Source: Felis catus (Eukaryota). Taken from it: a stretch of 64,000 nt of DNA. Position 1 is the stretch's first letter. Every line of letters starts with the position of its first letter. Made by a program: the position numbers and the translations under genes. Where the stretch lies: assembly GCF_018350175.1 (NCBI RefSeq), contig NC_058368.1, positions 74,464,001-74,528,000 of the forward strand, given 5' to 3'. This document shows positions 3,647-44,530 of the stretch, piece after piece. Under the pieces are notes generated by a model that was not told where the DNA came from, did not search any database, and saw nothing but the letters and a program-made list of their open reading frames with translations.

Positions 3647-4309
3647 GGTATTCTCTACATTTTCATACAAAGTGTCCACATTGAATGATATTTTGGAGCA
3701 TGTGGGAAATGTTAATAAAGATTGTCCCCAAAAAAATTCCCAAAATATGAATATATATAAAGCTGCATGATTAATGGAAGACTTGACACTTTACGTGCAA
3801 CAAATGAGGGAAAGTGGCTTTGAAAGCACATTTGACAAATGTAAAGCTTTAGCAAGAGACATAAATAATGCTACCTGAATTTGCAAAAAAGTGAAAACGA
3901 AAATAAACGAATAGAATTGTGTAATATGCCAAATCAGAATCAAACAGGGTGGTAAAATCCTATGTCAAGTACAAATTAGGGAGATTATAGATTTTATTAT
4001 TATCTAATTAATGGATAGAATAATTATTGTAGATGACAATAATATCGGTCATTTGTCATTTAGAATCCAAATTGTGTCTGCATCTTCTACAACTTATTCA
4101 TGACATCTTCTTAGTGAAATCTTATCCACATTTCAAAGCACTTGAGAATATTTTTTAACAGCTGGTCACAGAAGCATCCTGTGATAGAAGTTGCATTAAG
4201 GTGAAGTTAATTAACATTTATTTAAGTCATCATTTAGTTAAGAGAAATTGGCAAATATGGCAATTCTGTCCTTTGCAAATGAGATAATCAAACCAGTAGA
4301 TGTTTTAAC

Positions 4310-12968: not shown

Positions 12969-13450
12969 TTAGTTCCGTGACATTTTATCACATGTATATT
13001 CATGTAACATCACTACAGTCAAGGCATAAAACTGTCCCTTCCCATAAAACTCCCTCCATCACCATGCTTCAGCCTCTGGCAGCCAGTAATCTGATCTCCA
13101 TCTCTATAATTTTGTCATTTAGAGAATATTATAGAAGTGCAGTCATATGAGATGATTCATATTTTTTGAGATTACCTTTTCACACTCAGCATAATGTGCT
13201 TGAAAGAGCCAATGCCCTTGTTACGTGCATCAATAGTTTACTCATTTTGATTGCCATTTTCCATGGTACACATGTGTCATGCCAGCTTCTTTGGCCACTC
13301 ACCTGTTGAGAGAAGTTTTGGTTGGTCTCAATGTTTAACTATTATACGCAAAGCTGGTAAGCACAAGATTTTGTGTAACCATTAGTTTCCATTGCCGTGA
13401 GATAAATGCAAAAGTTCATTGGCTCAGTTGTGTGGCGAAAAATGGCTGGA
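12730..13450 (-). mobile_element. L1MC-like 3' fragment with (TG)n
   Basis: Typical antisense L1 3'UTR/ORF2-end motifs. Confidence 0.65.
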
Positions 13451-17340: not shown

Positions 17341-18799
17341 GAAGAGGTTGTCCTTGATGATAGACCTTATTATTATTTTTAATCAGGACTTTGGAATTTC
17401 ATTTATTCATTAAACCGGTATATCTTGAGTGCCTTCTAGATTCTCGGCAAAAACAGAGATACCTGGGAGACACTAGTAGGGAAAACAAGTACCCTCTTTA
17501 CCCTCGTACATTCATAGTGTAGTAGATTTATCTACTGATATCCGCGAACTCATGTAACTCTGCACACCTACTAAGTAATACAGCCCAAAGTTCAATTTTT
17601 GTGGCATTCTCTTTCAGCTTTTATGTTTGCTCATTTTCAAAGTACTTCCAATGTATTTGCTCTTTTTTTCTTAATGAAGGAAAAAAATACTGAAATGTTG
17701 ATTCAGTTTTGTCTCATAAACTAATATAAATGAGTCAGAGTTGGAAATTATTAGTCATGCTAATGCAGGGAATCTTTAATCTCAATTGGATGCTCAATGA
17801 CCATAAGCCAATAAATCGTGTGCCTAATTATGAAGAAGAACAAACTTACAGAACATGAAAAAAGTGTCAGGAGAATTCTGTCACTTCATGTGTCACAGGG
17901 AATTGGACTTTTGGCTTTATGTAGATAAGATCATCCTTATACCATGCAATATATTTTCTATTTCACTTACTTTTAAATTTTTCTCAGGAACTCACTAGAT
18001 TGTATGTGACTCATCCAAATGAAACTGTATGAAAGAAACCAAAATTCCCATTTCCATGGCTTGCTTGCAGTGACTAGCAGGGATTCCTGTGGTGTCCTAA
18101 GCTCCACCTTCTTTCAGATGCCTGATTTTTTCCATCTGGTAGCTTGATATCCAGGGCAGCATGAAGCCACCTGTCTATAAAAGGAACTGCCCAGTAGAAG
18201 TGAGGCACGGGCTGCTTATGGAAGTGTTAATAGACCAGCAAGCTCAAACTTTCCCAGAAGTCCATAGAAAAATTCTGCTTGCTCTCATTGGTCTGAATGA
18301 AGATATATGCCTTGAAGCATTCACTCTTAAAAGTGCTATAATTACCCTTAGATCTTGGGTGATTTGCATTTCTGGGGCCAGGGGTGAAATCTGGACCCAA
18401 AGAGCAGATATTTTGAAATCAGGCACCCTTAGGTGAGATGAAGGAAGGAGTGGGTTGTGAGCACCGACAAAGAACATCTTCCACAGTAGAAGAGACTACT
18501 GCACCTGTTATATTCATTCAAACATCAGGCTTTGACATTGTTTTCAGTGGTGTCAATAATTAAATTTCTAAAAAGATGGACAGTGAATTCTCAAACCTAG
18601 AAATGTTTAAGAATAGTGTTGAGGAGATTTACACCAAAAATTAGAAGGCAAAATATGATCTTTGACCCCACCAATCCTGAGCTTCTGTAAAGTCTATGGT
18701 AATTATTATGTTTGTTTTGATGGTATTTAAAAATTTTACAAACTGAACACCTCTGAGATACTGCTTTTGTTACCATAATTTAACTGTATGATTTGTTTC

Positions 18800-20316: not shown

Positions 20317-21613
20317 TTTTTTTATATAAAATTTATTGACAAATTGGTTTCCATACAACACCCAGTGCTCATCCCAAAAGGTGCCCTCCTCAATACCCAT
20401 CACCCACCCTCTCCTCCCTCCCACCCCCCATCAACCTTCAGTTTGTTCTCAGTTTTTAAGAGTCTCTTATGCTTTGGCTCTCTCCCACTCTAACCTGTTT
20501 TGTTTTTTTTTTTCCTTCCCCTCCCCCATGGGTTCCTGTTAAGTTTCTCAGGATCCACATAAGAGTGAAACCATATGGTATCTGTCTTTCTCTGTATGGC
20601 TTACTTCACTTAGCATCACACTGTCCAGTTCCATCCACGTTGCTACAAAAGGCCATATTTCATTTTTTCTCATTGCCACGTAATATTCCATTGTGTATAT
20701 AAACCACAATTTCTTTATCCATTCATCAGTTGATGGACATTTAGGCTCTTTCCATAATTTGGCTATTGTTGAGAGTGCTGCTATGAACATTGGGGTACAA
20801 GTGGCCCTATGCATCAGTACTCCTGTATCCCTTGGATAAATTCCTAGCAGTGCTATTGCTGGGTCATAGGGTAGGTCTATTTTTAATTTTCTGAGGAACC
20901 TCCACACTGCTTTCCAGAGCGGCTGCACCAATTTGCATTCCCACCAACAGTGCAAGAGGGTTCCCGTTTCTCCACATCCTCTCCAGCATCTATAGTCTCC
21001 TGATTTGTTCATTTTGGCCACTCTGACTGGCATGAGGTGATACCTGAGTGTGGTTTTGGTTTGTATTTCCCTGATAAGGAGCAACGCTGAACATCTTTTC
21101 ATGTGCCTGTTGGCCATCCGGATGTCTTCTTTAGAGAAGTGTCTATTCATGTTTTCTGCCCATTTCTTCACTGGGTTATTTGTTTTTTGGGTGTGGAGTT
21201 TGGTGAGCTCTTTATAGATTTTGGATACTAGCCCTTTGTCCGATATGTCATTTGCGAATATCTTTTCCCATTCCGTTGGTTGCCTTTTAGTTTTGTTGGT
21301 TGTTTCCTTTGCTGTGCAGAAGCTTTTTATCTTCATAAGGTCCCAGTAGTTCACTTTTGCTTTTAATTCCCTTGCCTTTGGGGATGTGTCGAGTAAGAGA
21401 TTGCTACGGCTGAGGTCAGAGAGGTCTTTTCCTGCTTTCTCCTCTAAGGTTTTGATGGTTTCCTGTCTCACATTTAGGTCCTTTATCCATTTTGAGTTTA
21501 TTTTTGTGAATGGTGTGAGAAAGTGGCCTAGTTTCAACCTTCTGCATGTTGTTGTCCAGTTCTCCCAGCACCATTTGTTAAAGAGGCTGTCTTTTTTCCA
21601 TTGGATGTTCTTT
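20317..21613 (-). mobile_element. Young 5'-truncated L1 (L1_Fc type) with open ORF2 C-terminus
   Basis: 357-aa ORF with [18 protein letters not shown] zinc knuckle; poly-A; perfect TSD aacaacacttactctt (20301-16 and 21614-29). Confidence 0.97.
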
Positions 21614-21664
21614 AACAACACTTACTCTTGTTACTGCTATTACAAAGTAGATGACAGGACTTAC

Positions 21665-36810: not shown

Positions 36811-37180
36811 GTCAAAAATCCCCATTCTTGTGGGAACATCGAATAAATCCAGATTGCGAAAATTATTACCTGGAAGAGAAAAACATTTCAGTCAGAACAA
36901 CAAAATAATTTACTTGTCCTTGTGGGATGAAATTTGAGTGAGAAAAAACAACAAACTACTTCATCAGAGGAGTAAAAACTTCAAGTGGCTCAAAATTGCA
37001 ACTTAAAAAAAAAAGTTTTTCATTAGGAAGCCTTAAAGGGTAGACATTTTGTGAGTCTAAGGGTAAATAATATTCATTTCAGAAACCTACAGATGAGTTT
37101 CGAGTCAGTCAGCATGTGTCATATTTTGTTTGTGTGTTCTTTAAATCGGATATCAAAGTAAAGGAAATAAGTATCATAAT

Positions 37181-37689
37181 ATTACCAGGGACTCGCTCAC
37201 AAGCCACAATAACCCAGTTTTCTAGCCCTGCTTATAAGTTCATCTGCCAGGCCAGATGCCAGAAGACACAAGCTCCAAACAAGCCCCTGCAACCCAGTTT
37301 TGACCAGTTTGATCCAGTTCATAGTGCTGACTGTCCAGATGACCTCCTGATACAGATCATCTAATTGTAATAACAAAACCACACCAACCAGCACCTGGAG
37401 ACAGCCATCTGTGCCCATGTAAGGGAAGAAAAAATGTGGCGCTCGGATTCCCAGCAGCCACCTCTCCCCAGAAAAACCACTCGTCAACTTGCTTACTGGC
37501 CCTGTAATTACCCTAGCCCCATAAAGCCCTGACAATGAGACCTAATCCAGGAGAAGGTGCCTTTGGTTAGAGCATGAACTCCCCTTCTCCATTTTCTGGC
37601 CTTTGAATGAATGACCTTCTGGCCATCAAATAACTGCTTTGCTATTTGATTATTTGGCAAAGAGTGAAAAACCTACTACTCAGGAAACA
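37181..37689 (+). mobile_element. Probable solo ERV LTR
   Basis: GC-richer 500-bp block ending ..aaaca with TATA-like cataaa; family not recognised. Confidence 0.5.
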
Positions 37690-37797: not shown

Positions 37798-38012
37798 GTT
37801 TAAGGTGGAATGTGACAAGTTTGCTCTGTAAGTTCAATTCTGGACGAATGAAATACGTTGGTCACTGCTATCATGACACTATGTCGAACAACTAAATATC
37901 ATAATTAATACTCTTTTTAGTTTTGTTCTTGAATAGCATTTGTAGGACTGTGGAGTTGGATATGAACATTTTAAAGATTTTTAAAAAGTTTATAGTGAAT
38001 GCAGAAATGAAG
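37798..38012 (+). pseudogene. RhoGEF pseudogene: DH CR1 exons (to 37827; 37937-38012)
   Basis: CT|gtaagt, gaatag|C and AAG|gtaatc sites; phase-compatible KVECDKFAL-ICRTVELDMNILKIFKKF, similar to 'R.+..E+..TE..Y+..L.++...F'. Confidence 0.58.
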
Positions 38013-38127
38013 GTAATCCATACAGGAAAAGAATTACGCACATCATTGGTTACCTTTTTTGGTTGTTGGTGTTTTGTTTTGTCACTTTCGGAAGCATCAA
38101 TATAAACCAAAACACGGCCTTTCCTAG

Positions 38128-38337
38128 CTCCTACTGGTTTGCATAAACCTTTTGCTTTGGGGACAAAACTACCTGTGGGCAGCTTTTGATCAGCTGATTT
38201 TTCAATACAGTGTCAGTAATGAATCTTAAATTTTTGTTTGAGTGACTCTTACAATTGGAGAATTGGAATTTGAATTGGAGATAGAGCGTAGGAAAGTTTA
38301 GACCTGAATGATGTCAGTTAGATCATTTAAAGTTCTG
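38128..38337 (+). pseudogene. RhoGEF pseudogene: DH CR2 exon
   Basis: FDQLIF..(fs)MNLKFLFE*LLQLENWN....SVGKF resembles DH 'IF.N....FL.EL..RLE.W....IG.+F'; donor gtaaat. Confidence 0.62.
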
Positions 38338-38651
38338 GTAAATGGAAAGACTATTCTTGATGGACTTTTGCAAACACTATTTTTCACTTACTTTATTCTT
38401 TTTTATTATTATATGAAGCATTGCTATAGGAATTCTTTGCGTGGATTCTTTCCCCAGAACAAGATGAGATCTGTTTCCTGCGTTGTATAACCCTTCCTAC
38501 TGTAATTACACGTTAAAAAACACCAGACATGGAATGTTCCTATATAGTACTGTTTTTGTCCGATAATCCTATCAAAATGGTTCTAACAGCCAACAGAGAC
38601 AGCTGTACATTTTCTTGTTTTTATAAATCTTAACCCAAACAATAATCCTAG

Positions 38652-39257
38652 GTTAAACTCCATCTCTATCATCTAATGGATGATAAAATATAGGAATGAA
38701 TTTTATGACAGATTAGCGCCTTTACTGCCTCGGAAGAGAATGGCCTCGATTGTCAGTACAGAGCATTTTAACAGCTGAGTTATAAGCATGTCAGGTTAGT
38801 ATTTGTGTTTCTAATGGAGGAAAAATTACTGCAGTGATAAGTACTTATCTAAATTTTGGCCCTCTTTTCCACCTAATTCTGAGTTTCTGAAAACTCATTT
38901 CCTAACACATGAATTAAAGGCAGTGATTATTATACATAGGCAGGTTGTTAGTATTTAGGTAAATTATTTTGGCCTGAGAGTTTATTTTAGTTATGTTACC
39001 ATAATGCATCAGATAATCATTGCATTTACTTATGCTGTGCTGGCATTTTTAAATGTGACTTAAGGTTTTGTTTGTAGGGTAATTTATTGCATCACATAGC
39101 AGATTCTGAGACTCACTGGAACATTATAAACAATTTTAGTAAGCTTCGTCCTTTATACGTTTTAAATGAGGACTGGTCTTATTTTGTTCAGGAGAAAACA
39201 TTACAATTGTCTAGAAGGATTATAATAAAGTGAAATAAGCGTTAGATTTAAGATGTG
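38652..39257 (+). pseudogene. RhoGEF pseudogene: DH C-terminal exons, including 39078-39138
   Basis: tttgtag|GNLLHHIADSETHWNII|gtaagc resembles 'LLKHTP.SHPD...L'; neighbouring segments weaker. Confidence 0.5.
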
Positions 39258-40244
39258 GTTGGGATAACCCACATGGATGTTTCTCCTAGGTTTGGTTAGT
39301 GGTAGTCATTTAAATATGTATGCACCACATGGAAACTGAGTTTCAGTCTCTCCAAAGATTCAAGATGGTGCCCTTAGATAAGAAGCTAAATTTACTCTGA
39401 ATCTCAAAAGTCAATTTATCTACTTTTGACCAGTTAAACTTTTGACCACATACAAAGGACTGCTTTTTTACTTTCTTTATGATTATGTCTTAAACTTGAG
39501 TTATTTCTCTTACTTGACTCATAAACTACGGATTAATAACAAAGGAGAGAGAAAAGAGAAATTGAGACTTTCCCTCCTTTATCTTATCCTTGTGATCTTT
39601 TAAGTATTGTAAACTTGGAGAAAAAGTCATTTGTTGAAAACTTTCAACTCAGATTTATACAAATTATAATGTGGTCAGGGTCAAAAATTTAATCACACAA
39701 ATCTAATATACAAAGTCAACTTAAAAAAAATCTAGAAGTCATTTAATCTTCCTTATAAGTCCCCAGTCCACTTAGTAGATGAAAAATTTAGATTTATCCT
39801 TTACTTTTACCTTGATTTTATCTTGTTTAAAATGTTTCCTTTGGTCAAATTTCCAGTTCATTCTAAGTCCAACTAAATTTTTACATTTTTTTATGCTCAA
39901 GGTAAAGACTGATTACATGTCTCAGTAAAAAGGTAAGGGTAGGTTGTCTTAGTGCTATCCTATGTGATTGGTCTTTAGCATTGGATGTTGTGCTTGGTTT
40001 CTTTAATGGATGTTGTGCTTGGTTTACTTTATACTCTTAATATTACATAGTAACCACTGCCGTTGATGGTTGGCCATGTGCAATCCCATCCTAGGTCTCT
40101 GCCGGCTAAGTGAATCTTTCAGCATCTACTGTGCCCTGGTCAGGGCACACAGAAAGTTCTTGATTTCTTGAATGTCAAGACCAAGTGGCAGGGTGTTCTC
40201 ACCATCACTTACCTGGCAAAGTCTCTCCCTTGCTGTGTTATCAG

Positions 40245-40697
40245 ACAGCATGTTGGACAATGCTCCGTAGGAGACTTTAGCTGGAGGCAGATAAAATAAG
40301 AAAAGCTTTCTTGGTTTGTCTCATGATTATCTGTAAGTTTCTATTTCTATCAACTCCTCAACTTACCCAGTCACATTTCAACTCAACAGACCCCAAAGGA
40401 GCATGTTTTCTGCCTTTTCCTCCTTATCTTAACAGGCCTTCCTTTTTGTGATACCTTAATTATTCTTTGAGTCACCAAGCATCCAGACTTGGCCTAGTGA
40501 TATAAGGATAATCTTTAATAACCTATAAAAGAGTTTCTGTGAGCTAAGGACACACAGTCGGCTGACGACACAGGAAAGTCAATACAACCCGGACCCATGG
40601 ATCCTATGAACTGAAATGAATATATTTAAAAAAAATTCTCCCAACGTTAACCATTTTGCAGAAACTTGAAGGAAATATTCTGACTCTTTTTCATTAG
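40245..40697 (+). pseudogene. RhoGEF pseudogene: PH exons (40245-40332; 40436-40697)
   Basis: cttaacag|AFLF(1-nt deletion)CDTLII matches the PH 'FLF.D.L++' motif; GSYELK*IYL; donors gtaagt and gtgagt. Confidence 0.62.
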
Positions 40698-41265
40698 GTG
40701 AGTGGATGTATATCTGATTAATTTAAGCCATGTAGAAAGCTACAAGGTTAAACCATAGGAAATTGCCATTGTTGTGTGTTGAAAGCAGTCAAATATTGTC
40801 AACGCAGGTCCGATTATTTCAAATCTTTCAACACCTTGTTTCTGTGATAACTAATTTGGGGAATCTCCAACCCAATGAAGGCACACAGGTACACACACAC
40901 ATACACGCATGCACAGACACAGGCACACACACACACAGGGACATCATTCTCTTTGTTAGTCTGGTGTTTAGAACAAGGTTGACTTACTGTAACATTTTAT
41001 GAACTTCCAACTCGATAGACAAATGATATACTTAACTAATTACAGTGTAATGTCTCTCTCCTCATGTTGTAATTAAAGCAGTAAAAACACACCTTTGTTT
41101 ACAAAGATGAATATATATATTCACATAATACCGCATGAATTCCGTTCAAGGCATAGTCAAAAAGTATAGTAGGATTACACTTGATTTCTTGCTGTGCATT
41201 TTTTTCTGAGAGTTTTTATTTGCTCTTTGCTTTGTTCTTTTAACTATCAAACCATTCGATTTCAA

Positions 41266-41500
41266 CTTTTTATGTTTTTAATAAACTTTTTTTAATGTTT
41301 ATTTATTTTTAAGAGAGAGAGAGAGAGACAGAGCGCAAGCAGGGGAGGGACAGAGTGAGAGGGAGACACAGAATCCGAAGCAGTCTCCAGGCTCTGAGAT
41401 ATCAACATAGAGCCTGCTGTGGAGCTTGAACTCATGAACCATGAGATCATGACCTGAGCCGATGTTGGACTCTTAATCGACTGAGACACCCAGGTGCCCC
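41266..41500 (-). mobile_element. CanSINE
   Basis: TSD atttcaacttttt. Confidence 0.95.
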
Positions 41501-41759
41501 TCAATTTCAACTTTTTAAAAACACTTCAAACCTACGAAAACATCTATTTTTTCCCAAGAGACTTTCATTCAGATGGTCTCTTTCCTTTTAAATCTAGACT
41601 AGCTGCTTTCTAAATCTGTATACAATTGTCCTTGTGAGATTTCTCAACATTTGCTTCCTCGATATGGTATGTTATTTTCTAGACATCATATTTCCCCTTT
41701 CATGATTTAATTCTTCACTTCTCTGAAGTATATCCTCAAGTAAGAAATAGTATAGAGGG

Positions 41760-41970
41760 GGGGTGCCTGGGTGGCGCAGTCGGTTAAGCGTCCGACTTCA
41801 GCCAGGTCACGATCTCGCGGTCCGTGAGTTCGAGCCCCGCGTCAGGCTCTGGGCTGATGGCTCAGAGCCTGGAGCCTGTTTCCGATTCTGTGTCTCCCTC
41901 TCTCTCTGCCCCTCTCCCGTTCATGCTCTGTCTCTCTCTGTCCCAAAAATAAATAAACGTTGAAAAAAAA
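41760..41970 (+). mobile_element. Young SINEC_Fc
   Basis: TSD aagaaatagtatagaggg. Confidence 0.97.
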
Positions 41971-42200
41971 AAGAAATAGTATAGAGGGTTAAATTTACTA
42001 ATCTCTGATTTTCTAAAAATACTCTTCTTCTGTCTGACTTAATTTGTCTCGCTGCAGAATTCTTGGTAGAAAAATGGTCAGAATTTGAAGACATTTTCTC
42101 TTTGTATCACACCATCCAATATTGCTGAATAAAAGACCAATTCCAGTTTTATTGTCTGTCTTTTTGAGATTGCCTCATTTCCCACCTCTTGACACCTTGT

Positions 42201-42827
42201 GTATGAGTTTCCTAGGGCTGTTGTAACAACATACCACAGAGTGACTTAAAACAAGAGAAATGTGTTCTGGAGACAAGAAAGTCTGAAATCAAGGTGTTAG
42301 TAGGGCTGTGCTTCCTCTGCAGTTTCAAGGGAACCATCCTTCACCAGTTCTTCCATCCTATGGTGCTGCCTGCAACCTTAATGTCATTTGGCTCCTAGCT
42401 GCATCACTCTGATGTTAGAGGATAGTCTCCTTATGTGTCTGTGTCTCTGTGTTCAAATCTCCCTCTCCTTACGAAGAAACTAGGGGCACCTGGGTGGCTC
42501 AGTTAGTTAAGCATCCGACTCTTGGTTTCGGCTCAGGTCATGATCTCATGGTTCCTTGGTTCATGCCCTGTGTTGGGCTCTGTGTTGATACTGAGGATCC
42601 TGCTTGGGATTCTCTTTCCCTCTCTCTCTGCCCGCCCCCCCCCCTCAAAATAAATAAATAAACTTAAAAAAAAGAAACTAGTCATTAGGTTAGGGCCCAC
42701 CCTAATTTAGTAAGACCTCATCTTAACCTAATTAAGACCCTATTTCCAAATAAGGTCATTTTCTTAAGTGTGGGAATTAAGATTTGAAAAAAAAAATCTT
42801 TTTGGGGAGTGCAGTTCAACCCACAGC
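42201..42827 (-). mobile_element. MaLR LTR (MLT1B/C-like) interrupted by a SINE
   Basis: tgtatgagtttcctagggctgttgtaaca...agaccctatttccaaataaggtca...ttcaacccaca. Confidence 0.85.
42483..42672 (+). mobile_element. CanSINE in MLT1
   Basis: TSD aagaaactag. Confidence 0.95.
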
Positions 42828-43417
42828 GCCCTGAATTAGAAGAAAAATTTCTTTTTTACTCCTGGGTATGCTGATATTTTCAAATGATGAATCTAAATCT
42901 GGCTTTCTTTATAATTTTATTTAGTAAACTTTATGTAGTTTGAAAATATCTATGCCATTTAAGTCAGAGAAATTTTCTTCTCATATCTCTGATATTTTTG
43001 TCTCTATTTTTGCTATTTATTCTTCCAGAACTCATATTTTAATTGGACCATCGATTTCTTGGTTTTATAACCTATATCACTTATCTTTTTACCCATATTT
43101 TATGTAAATCTATCATTGAAAAAAATCAAACAATCTCTCTCAACTTTATATACCAGAGTTTGCTTTGAAATTATGAATGTATAAGCTTATCTCTAGTTCT
43201 CAAGAGTTCTTGTGTTTTTCCTTTTTTATACCATTCTGGTGTTAATTTATGAATATGTGATCTACATGGTTTTCATAAGACTCTACTTTGGACGATTTTG
43301 TTTTAATTTCTGTATCTTTTCCTAAATTATGTTCCTGGATATTTTTTTAAGACTTATTCTTTCTTATTTCAGGCTTTCCTTAAATGTATAACCAAATTTG
43401 CTTTCCCATAGATATTA

Positions 43418-43636
43418 TTTTTTTTATTTTTTTTAACGTTTATTTATTTTTGAGACAGAGAGAGACAGAGCATGAACGGGGGAGGGTCAGAGAGAGAGGG
43501 AGACACAGAATCCGAAGCAGCTCCAGGCTCTGAGCCGTCAGCCCAGAGCCCGATGCAGGGCTCGAACTCACAGACCGCGAGATCGTGACCTGAGTTGAAG
43601 TCTGATGCTTAACCGACTGAGCCACCCAGGTGCCCC
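43418..43636 (-). mobile_element. CanSINE
   Basis: TSD catagatatt. Confidence 0.95.
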
Positions 43637-44411
43637 TCTCATAGATATTTTTAAATGTGGCCACTGATTATTGTAAACTACGTGCTCTGTAAATGTGGAC
43701 AAGGCTCATCATCTATTCACACTTGCTTTAGAATAGAGCCAGACATTCACTGAAGACCACTCGTACGCAAGCATGGAAATGCTTCGCTGTGGGTGTCCAA
43801 CTAGGCACTAGAGTTTTCTCTTGACATTTTCTTCGGTTTGTTTGGAAGGCAAGCCTCCCTTTTTGCCTTGGGTGTGATCATCTGGGTTATTACTTCTGCT
43901 TAGTAACATACAATCAGATTTGACGTGATAAATGTTCTGCGTACAGTCCTTCACTTACATCTTATATGTTGGCCCACAGCTCTGTGGGGGTCTGTCACCT
44001 GTGCTGAGAACCCTTACATCACGTCAAGCTCAGCTTAACCTCATTAATCAATGGTTACCCGTCAGCTTTTCAGCTTGACTTCTTACTGAAACTTTAGAAA
44101 TCTCTCTGTTGCTGAAGTCTTCTCCATTCTTTTGCTGTTATGAGATTACAGGTTTCATTTTTTTTTTAATTTTAACTTGTTTTCAGGAAGGGACATTGTA
44201 AATGTCTGCGGCAAATCTGCCATCTGTCTTCTAAGTAGTTTTGTTGTTGTTGTTGTTGTTGTTTATTTCCACTGGGACGGCCTGATCTTGAAGAGCTGTT
44301 GCAGGGAATTGGTTTCTAGGTGAAAATATTCAAAGAAGACAGTTACTCAGAAAAAGTAAAACACAAAACCGAACCAAAAAAATGAACCAACAAAATTCTT
44401 GTTTCACCATC

Positions 44412-44530
44412 GTACACAAGATTCTCTGTGGAACTAAGAAGCTGTGGCCACAAAGCAAAGAAGGAATTAGAAAAAAGTTTCATGAATCATATTTCCAGAC
44501 AACTGTCTGAGGAAACCAAAAGACAAATAT
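44412..44530 (+). pseudogene. RhoGEF pseudogene: PH C-terminal strand/helix exon
   Basis: RFSVELRSCGHKAKKELEKSFMNHISRQL fits 'L.A.S...K..W...+...I' apart from the Trp; splice sites degraded. Confidence 0.42.

Follow-up and report, generated by a model that had tools for sequence, protein, structure and literature searches.

A Tentative Fossil of a DH-PH RhoGEF Gene in Felis catus, with Ordered Motif Traces Barely above Chance

Guanine-nucleotide exchange factors (GEFs) of the Dbl family use their DH domain to make a Rho GTPase release GDP, and their PH domain aids placement at membranes. The closest described systems are Dbl-family DH-PH RhoGEFs (PF00621 plus PH) of the small, DH-PH-only type, such as insect ARHGEF39-like and FGD4-like (P0008, P0041). 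As far as the accessible part of Fort and Blangy (2017, PMC5499878) extends, the Dbl RhoGEF catalogue comprises 72 genes, marsupials and fish retain a GEF64C-like RhoGEF (opossum XP_007493817 and devil XP_012399997, each of ~1,020 aa) that placentals have lost, and GEF64C is the sole Dbl member reported as a placental loss, named as such with no locus given.

A 64,000-nucleotide stretch of Felis catus DNA, the window, contains on its plus strand a chain of seven candidate exons (37798-40538), all bounded by AG and GT, in which look-alikes of DH motifs are followed by look-alikes of PH motifs. The DNA there is gene-free. We tentatively read the region, from its sequence, as the remnant of a long-dead DH-PH RhoGEF gene, with confidence a little short of even; the ordered DH-PH traces are faint, barely above chance. 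Fossil gene or chance assembly, the locus is unable to encode a protein, and no GEF-capable open frame exists because the segments carry 20 stops in 288 codons in addition to phase breaks. The ancestor would have been a compact, multi-exon Dbl-family (DH-PH) Rho guanine-nucleotide exchange factor gene, which may have been dead for a very long time, probably since before placentals radiated, and the sequence between segments C and D would since have been lost. In the living protein, DH would have caused a Rho GTPase to release its GDP, and PH would have helped with placement at membranes. The present-day locus, with SINEs inside, is inert as a protein gene.

The DH-like part of the chain comprises five segments. 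Candidate exon B (37798-38012, plus strand; 5 stops in 71 codons) has AG/GT edges, is in frame with C and holds a DH CR1-like stretch at 37877-37921. This stretch, HYVEQLNIIINTLFS at 37877, is the top local DH-profile match within 37-46 kb and ranks first among 107,468 positions, a rank to be read with the fact that the segment had been fitted to the same match. The original prediction of a CR1-like segment stands in part: the second half of the CR1 helix (E..TE..YV..L) matches well, but the ELxxTE half is unreadable in frame. The anchored path skips exon B, and 29 of 280 controls score at least as high. Candidate exon C (38211-38337, plus strand; 3 stops in 41 codons) carries the FL.E..LENW...VGKF stretch of the DH domain. 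The predicted motif FL.E...LENW...VG.F is indeed present, read in a single frame at 38231-38299 (plus strand) as FLFE*LLQLENWNLNWR*SVGKF, and the LENW segment, also a selected one, ranks second among the 107,468 positions. The CR1 match lies upstream of the LENW match, 350 nt away and in the same frame. Candidate exon D (38712-38794, plus strand) has a donor in the top 0.7%, is out of phase with C and offers a poor CR3-like stretch, with SVQSI for PVQRI, that 139 of 107,468 positions equal in score. The CR3 motif (P.QR..RY.LLL), the most conserved in DH, was not recovered in an anchored test from C to E, where 190 of 276 controls scored at or above the locus. Candidate exon E (39078-39138, plus strand; 0 stops in 20 codons) bears the GNLLHH..SETH stretch of the C-terminal part of DH; NLLHHIADSETH lies at 39081, bearing out the predicted NLLHH..SE.H on the plus strand. 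A 53-nt intron precedes candidate exon E2 (39192-39257, plus strand), the last DH helix, whose acceptor is in the top 1.2% and which an anchored search between E and G recovered in phase. None of the motifs quoted in the original prediction belongs to E2.

The DH-PH linker and look-alikes of PH beta-1/2 follow the DH-like segments in order, with no Pfam PH match. Candidate exon F (40095-40332, plus strand), in frame with E2, is assigned to the linker and the beginning of PH over its first ~25 codons only, the remainder carrying no assignment. It is the sixth-best six-frame profile match in the window (i-E 1.8), and the anchored search from E to G picked a different segment in its place. Candidate exon G (40436-40538, plus strand) is PH beta-2-like and has an acceptor in the top 1.0%, exactly where AFLF starts. 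Both halves of the proposed AFLFCDTLII exist, AFLF at 40436 and CDTLII at 40447, but they sit in two frames one base apart, and a continuous reading therefore requires the one-base deletion that had been named with the motif. Within the supposed last intron, a self-BLAST of the window identified four SINE-type repeat copies (41259-41523, 41758-41987, 42476-42676 and 43407-43655, strand unassigned), which we take to be the carnivore SINE. One or more last exons may lie at 44187-44530 (plus strand), weakly supported by an acceptor at 44187 (top 1.5%) and a stretch near 44424-44505 that resembles the PH terminal helix. That helix had also been predicted; a weak match exists, but 728 of 107,468 positions equal it and a frameshift is needed. 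An anchored search from G gave a score equal to the best of 47 controls, yet left the helix unreached.

The case for DH-PH ancestry comes from the way these pieces join. The DH-PH profile used was home-made from 47 environmental DH-PH sequences, and all four members scanned were Pfam RhoGEF. Across AG/GT junctions and with no repair, B and C read in one frame, as do D, E, E2 and F, and the joined D-E-E2-F translation scores 9.1 bits on this profile (E 3.4e-5 for a single trial). Within it, E, E2 and the start of F align gap-free over ~55 residues to the end of DH and the start of PH. Among 2,187 frame choices, the best scores 7.7 bits and has E, E2 and F in phase-consistent frames, the best on the reverse strand being -1.4, and the same exon geometry slid elsewhere attains the score at 8 of 537 places. 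When E and G were fixed, the intervening DNA was equalled or beaten by 7, 1, 10 and 2 of 170 control tiles, and by none of 170 in a further anchored test. The predicted 'plus-strand exons, several phase-compatible' thus hold as to edges and to the B-C and D-E-E2-F runs, but the chain breaks at C-D, a phase-incompatible junction, and at F-G AFLF is reached only through a frame different from the DH-PH-like frame of F.

The strongest rival is that no gene ever existed here and that motifs were picked by chance, AT-rich neutral intergenic DNA and old repeats supplying both the AG/GT pairs and the look-alikes. We regard this as a serious possibility, itself not far below even. Every selection-aware test is at noise level. 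All 14 segment edges are AG/GT, each within the top 25% of its class, and 58 of 59 control tiles contain a better seven-exon splice chain than the candidate locus. Residual coding signal, whether stop depletion or GC raised above the flanks, is absent from the candidate segments. Stops occupy 6.9% of their codons and are not rarer than in the background (5.8%), whereas simulated neutral decay that keeps the frame gave 1.8-4.3%; the GC contrast of exons with introns is ordinary, being equalled in 22% of 517 slid geometries. The animal-weighted profile gives a mere 1.9 bits at the locus. An unspliced collinear chain scores 54.3 against tile medians of 50-51, and 4 of 19 plus-strand tiles are higher. 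When the search was anchored on C, 10-12 of the 79 other best C-like sites equalled the locus, and the path omitted B, E, E2 and F and did not use D as proposed. In one set of blind spliced searches, the locus was equalled by 31%, 19% and 74% of 144 tiles. In another blind spliced search it reached 20.9 bits, where the best of 72 control tiles had 23.3. This second search recovered 42-92% of simulated dead genes, with 37, 31 and 17 of 40 simulated DH-PH genes exceeding 25 bits at 0.2, 0.3 and 0.4 substitutions per site, respectively. Its silence is therefore moderate evidence only, since 23 of 40 were missed at 0.4 substitutions per site. Chance also accounts less readily for CR1 and LENW matches that are the top two positions, ordered and in frame, for AFLF beginning precisely at a top-1% acceptor and for the in-phase recovery of E2 from the E anchor. 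The claim of a decayed DH-PH gene accordingly keeps its ordered motifs, its in-frame run over three junctions and the anchored E-G test, but it is opposed by the blind and selection-aware tests, and the searches retrieved no orthologue; that the motif chain exceeds chance is not established.

An unlikely alternative is that the exons are real and decayed but belonged to another helical protein, or to a DH fragment, with the PH and helix pieces added by chance. In its favour are the patchiness of the support, which comes from B/C and E/E2 but not from D, the last exon or the end of F, and the phase incompatibility of C-D and F-G in the DH-PH frames. Against it, the signal that exists runs in DH-PH order, and the segments have no meaningful Pfam match to another family. 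Pfam searches of segments and frames taken singly, and of open frames, returned no RhoGEF, PH or PI3K family; the check proposed with PF00621 and PF00169 came out negative on single segments and frames, with DH below the Pfam cut-off and no PH match. PDB sequence searches with read-through frames yielded no RhoGEF, only kinesin and designed-protein noise or nothing. Three protein-library searches gave no vertebrate relative and no orthologue, although such searches depend on exact 5-residue words or ~40 bits and have little power with so decayed a query. Exon C had no relative in the Pfam, PDB or protein-library searches; two protein-library matches to it were rejected as repeat-rich junk. When two scaffolds were aligned together with four window pieces, the resulting search retrieved 44 DH proteins, none of them labelled as vertebrate, and pairwise comparison with the DH-PH protein set gave nothing significant (best E 0.047). 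Two open frames outside the candidate chain had no usable match in the ESM Atlas. The literature search found no published PI3K or RhoGEF fossil at the present locus, and no row of Table S1 of PMC10416458 could be placed there. A word search of the PMC5577775 supplement returned no PI3K or RhoGEF names, which carries little weight if its tables use identifiers only. Among sequencing runs containing the stretch are five RNA-labelled rows, mostly metatranscriptomes, possibly with host DNA.

The original prediction further suggested a functional link to a neighbouring PI3K. This is unsupported, because neither an intact nor a decayed PI3K exon could be confirmed in the window and the locus is non-coding; adjacency alone would not demonstrate such a link even were both genes real. 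Pfam detected no PI3K family in the longest 140 of the 233 listed open frames or in 21 candidate frames (three sub-threshold, unrelated matches were disregarded). Profiles for class I PI3Ks (gamma, gamma-like, beta and alpha-like) gave control-level scores; the gamma-like profile scored 42.9 against 31.2-43.4 for controls, where dead class I genes made by simulation score 44-634. For a sturgeon-family PI3K-gamma-like paralogue, the C2 part matched best on the minus strand at 12-24 kb (27.5-28.1 bits), the top of 28 tiles with a median of ~19, a hint that the PIK3CG, alpha-like and beta profiles lack. PI3K exons placed by eye on the minus strand (33.6, 29.1, 23, 18, 15.6, 13.4, 12.6 and 11 kb) were mutually inconsistent and unsupported, and those on the plus strand (3.9, 18 and 33 kb) were inconsistent among themselves and with the minus-strand set, and equally unsupported. 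That several incompatible placements, on both strands and none passing a test, arose by eye in the same window indicates how easily chains of look-alikes arise, a further point for chance. A live or recently live RhoGEF acting with a neighbouring PI3K is highly improbable: the C2 match is a weak hint of it, but the stops in the candidate segments, together with frameshifts, refute a live gene, and no PI3K catalytic motif occurs in the six frames of the window.

Should the fossil be real, a GEF64C-type RhoGEF is a candidate ancestor because GEF64C is reported, in the accessible part of PMC5499878, as lost in placentals; nothing ties it to this locus, and its length would predict many more exons than are seen. 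A bolder conjecture, which we consider improbable, is that a Dbl RhoGEF (the GEF64C orthologue or an uncatalogued member) was lost on the placental stem together with an adjacent PI3K-gamma-like paralogue, now equally decayed beside it, of which the C2 match on the minus strand at 12-24 kb would be a weak hint. Zebrafish si:rp71-17i16.5 and.6 may be an adjacent PI3K-gamma-like and GEF pair; the papers that mention them assign neither function nor position.

A real fossil would map a RhoGEF lost by placentals and make the loss datable. A chance origin would mean that ordered motifs with AG/GT edges are insufficient grounds, in AT-rich mammalian DNA, for calling a fossil gene. Either way, the locus adds no function to the cat. 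The tentative DH-PH remnant would be of the same kind as the unitary pseudogenes, or genes with lost coding potential, described for mammals in the accessible part of PMC5577775, that is, fossil exons of a gene that non-mammals retain; unlike those, it comes with no demonstrated orthologue. Set against the Dbl family, the locus has no open frame, an unrecognisable CR3 and no Pfam match, whereas its order is that of the family: CR1, FL..L...W..VG.F, the C-terminal helices, the linker and the PH beta-1/2 look-alikes.

A compact, long-dead DH-PH RhoGEF gene of the Dbl family is tentatively the most likely history of the plus-strand stretch from 37798 to 40538, and the DH-PH reading of the locus is plausible but unproven. 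The proposed gene consists of seven candidate exons, all with AG/GT edges: B (37798-38012), C (38211-38337), D (38712-38794), E (39078-39138), E2 (39192-39257), F (40095-40332), and G (40436-40538). The motifs named in the original prediction are present, with FLFE*LLQLENW...SVGKF at 38231-38299 in exon C, NLLHHIADSETH at 39081, and the PH β2-like AFLF and CDTLII of exon G at 40436 and 40447, but these last two are split over different frames. Several exons had also been described as phase-compatible, which proves true of part of the chain: once spliced, B-C share one frame without repair, as do D-E-E2-F, but the C-D junction is out of frame, and so is F-G in the DH-PH-like frame of F.

Profiles for the DH-PH region were built from 47, later 83, sequences. 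The probes came from 120 environmental loci with the conserved CR3 motif of the DH domain, and Pfam RhoGEF was confirmed in all four environmental DH loci scanned. These are distant probes, because most of their members come from protists, fungi, and invertebrates. The spliced translation scores 9.1 bits against the 47-sequence profile (E 3.4e-5 for one trial), and E-E2-F align without a gap along some 55 residues that run from the final DH helices to the beginning of the PH domain. Among 2,187 possible frame combinations, the top-scoring one places E, E2, and F in phase-consistent frames; the reverse strand reaches at best −1.4 under the same scoring. A stretch resembling CR1, another DH motif, at 37877 is the top local profile match in 37-46 kb and lies upstream of C, in frame with it. 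CR1 and C rank first and second of 107,468 positions, each for its own segment, the CR1 segment having been fitted to the match and C pre-picked by eye. When E and G serve as anchors, the 1.27 kb between them is equalled or beaten by 7, 1, 10, and 2 of 170 control tiles, and by none of 170 in a second run. The anchored path from E to G recovers E2 in phase but uses a different segment instead of F. Slid along the window with its geometry unchanged, the exon set, itself pre-chosen, reaches its score in 8 of 537 places.

The chance assembly of motifs is nearly as likely as a dead DH-PH gene. No segment matches Pfam RhoGEF (PF00621) or PH (PF00169), and the PDB gives no RhoGEF match. A blind, spliced, frameshift-aware profile search likewise stays at control level, with 31%, 19%, and 74% of 144 tiles scoring as well under three settings and the locus, at 20.9 bits, below the highest of 72 control tiles (23.3). 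When dead genes were simulated from eight held-out DH-PH proteins, 25 bits was exceeded in 37 of 40 runs at 0.2 substitutions per site, in 31 at 0.3, and in 17 at 0.4; all of these genes have a canonical CR3, which favours detection. The C-to-E anchored test, where the strongest CR3 signal is expected, is matched by 190 of 276 controls. As a free anchor, C is matched by 10-12 of 79 other best C-like sites, and the path from it departs from the proposed exons. The best seven-exon chain of splice sites is better in 58 of 59 tiles, the GC contrast of the segments is ordinary, and the stop rate is 6.9% against a background of 5.8%, frame-keeping decay giving 1.8-4.3%. An animal-weighted profile yields 1.9 bits only, and searches of protein libraries, which have little power for a query this decayed, found no vertebrate relative. 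The locus came out negative in the DH, CR3, and open-frame tests of Dbl-family membership and is therefore classed as resembling a dead Dbl gene rather than as a family member.

The prediction of a decayed RhoGEF is favoured by the ordered motifs, the E-E2-F profile match, and the anchored tests, and opposed by Pfam, the blind search, CR3, and the stop rate. A partial or different fossil is an improbable third reading. The locus does not work as a gene today, and a live GEF linked to PI3K is scarcely credible, since 20 stops in 288 codons of the proposed frames mean that no protein can be made. Under the dead-gene reading, a compact DH-PH RhoGEF gene would have died long ago, the sequence between C and D being lost or scrambled and SINEs entering the last intron. 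Decay this deep would place the loss before the placental radiation. In Dbl proteins the DH domain activates a Rho GTPase and the PH domain helps to position the protein at membranes, and the ancestor would have done the same.

The surrounding window is AT-rich mammalian DNA (GC 30-42%) with about 40 copies of one kind of SINE-type repeat and no intact protein-coding exon found. Of 233 open frames listed outside repeats, the 140 longest give nothing relevant in Pfam, and neither do three read-through frames at 22.0-33.7 kb on the minus strand. Two open frames overlap on opposite strands at 18143-18433 (plus, 97 codons) and 18247-18495 (minus, 83 codons), neither with a Pfam match; the former is AG/GT-bounded and present in Atlas, without a credible family there. 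A 357-codon minus-strand frame at 20551-21621, without a Pfam match at E 0.001, presumably resembles the C-terminal part of LINE-1 ORF2. The GC-richer block at 37180-37660, a short way upstream of B, has by eye the look of what we take to be a solitary retroviral LTR, and a decayed plus-strand stretch at 3700-4100 is presumably a hAT/Charlie-type transposase remnant, judged by eye.

The suggested functional link to a neighbouring PI3K finds no support: the catalytic motif is absent from all six frames of the window, and TBLASTN with PI3K proteins gives noise only. The set of 120 proteins included reptile and teleost PIK3CG and, separately, a sturgeon-family gamma-like paralogue, which in the sturgeon and paddlefish (P0152, P0166) forms a long branch apart from reptile/teleost PIK3CG in the tree. 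PIK3CG, beta, alpha-like, and pooled PI3K profiles are all at control level, and the gamma-like profile, at 42.9 for the minus strand of 1-38 kb, lies within the range of its controls (33.5, 43.4, and 31.2). Simulated dead class I PI3K genes score 44-634 bits (two runs each), so a whole class I fossil is unlikely in this sequence; a handful of leftover exons, or a gene of class II or III, may be present. The one hint comes from the C2 portion of the gamma-like paralogue, which reaches 27.5-28.1 bits on minus 12-24 kb, the top of 28 tiles (next 23-24) and not significant, through segments 23348-23248 and 19243-19145 (12 of 33-34 identical). A short helical-domain look-alike lies near 13320 (minus). 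The two strongest minus-strand acceptor-donor pairs in 1-37 kb, 15638-15485 and 13482-13303, have stops in all frames and no Pfam match, and may represent exons of a gene that is dead or non-coding. By-eye PI3K exon placements are mutually contradictory, which makes motif reading in this window less trustworthy. Elsewhere, a 272-kb viral contig (L126 3084-5408, minus) encodes a PI3K of 774 aa that contains kinase and PIK domains; among named proteins it is closest to class I PI3Ks of amoebae and animals, with about 40% identity.

No description of a PI3K or RhoGEF fossil at this locus was found in the literature, and searches of the supplements of PMC5577775 and PMC10416458 gave no row for it; the locus is at best a new unitary pseudogene. 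Fort and Blangy (PMC5499878) count 72 vertebrate Dbl members and report that GEF64C is retained by marsupials and fish but was lost in placentals. This RhoGEF is a candidate ancestor of the putative fossil. At about 1,020 aa, however, GEF64C would need many more exons than the locus shows.
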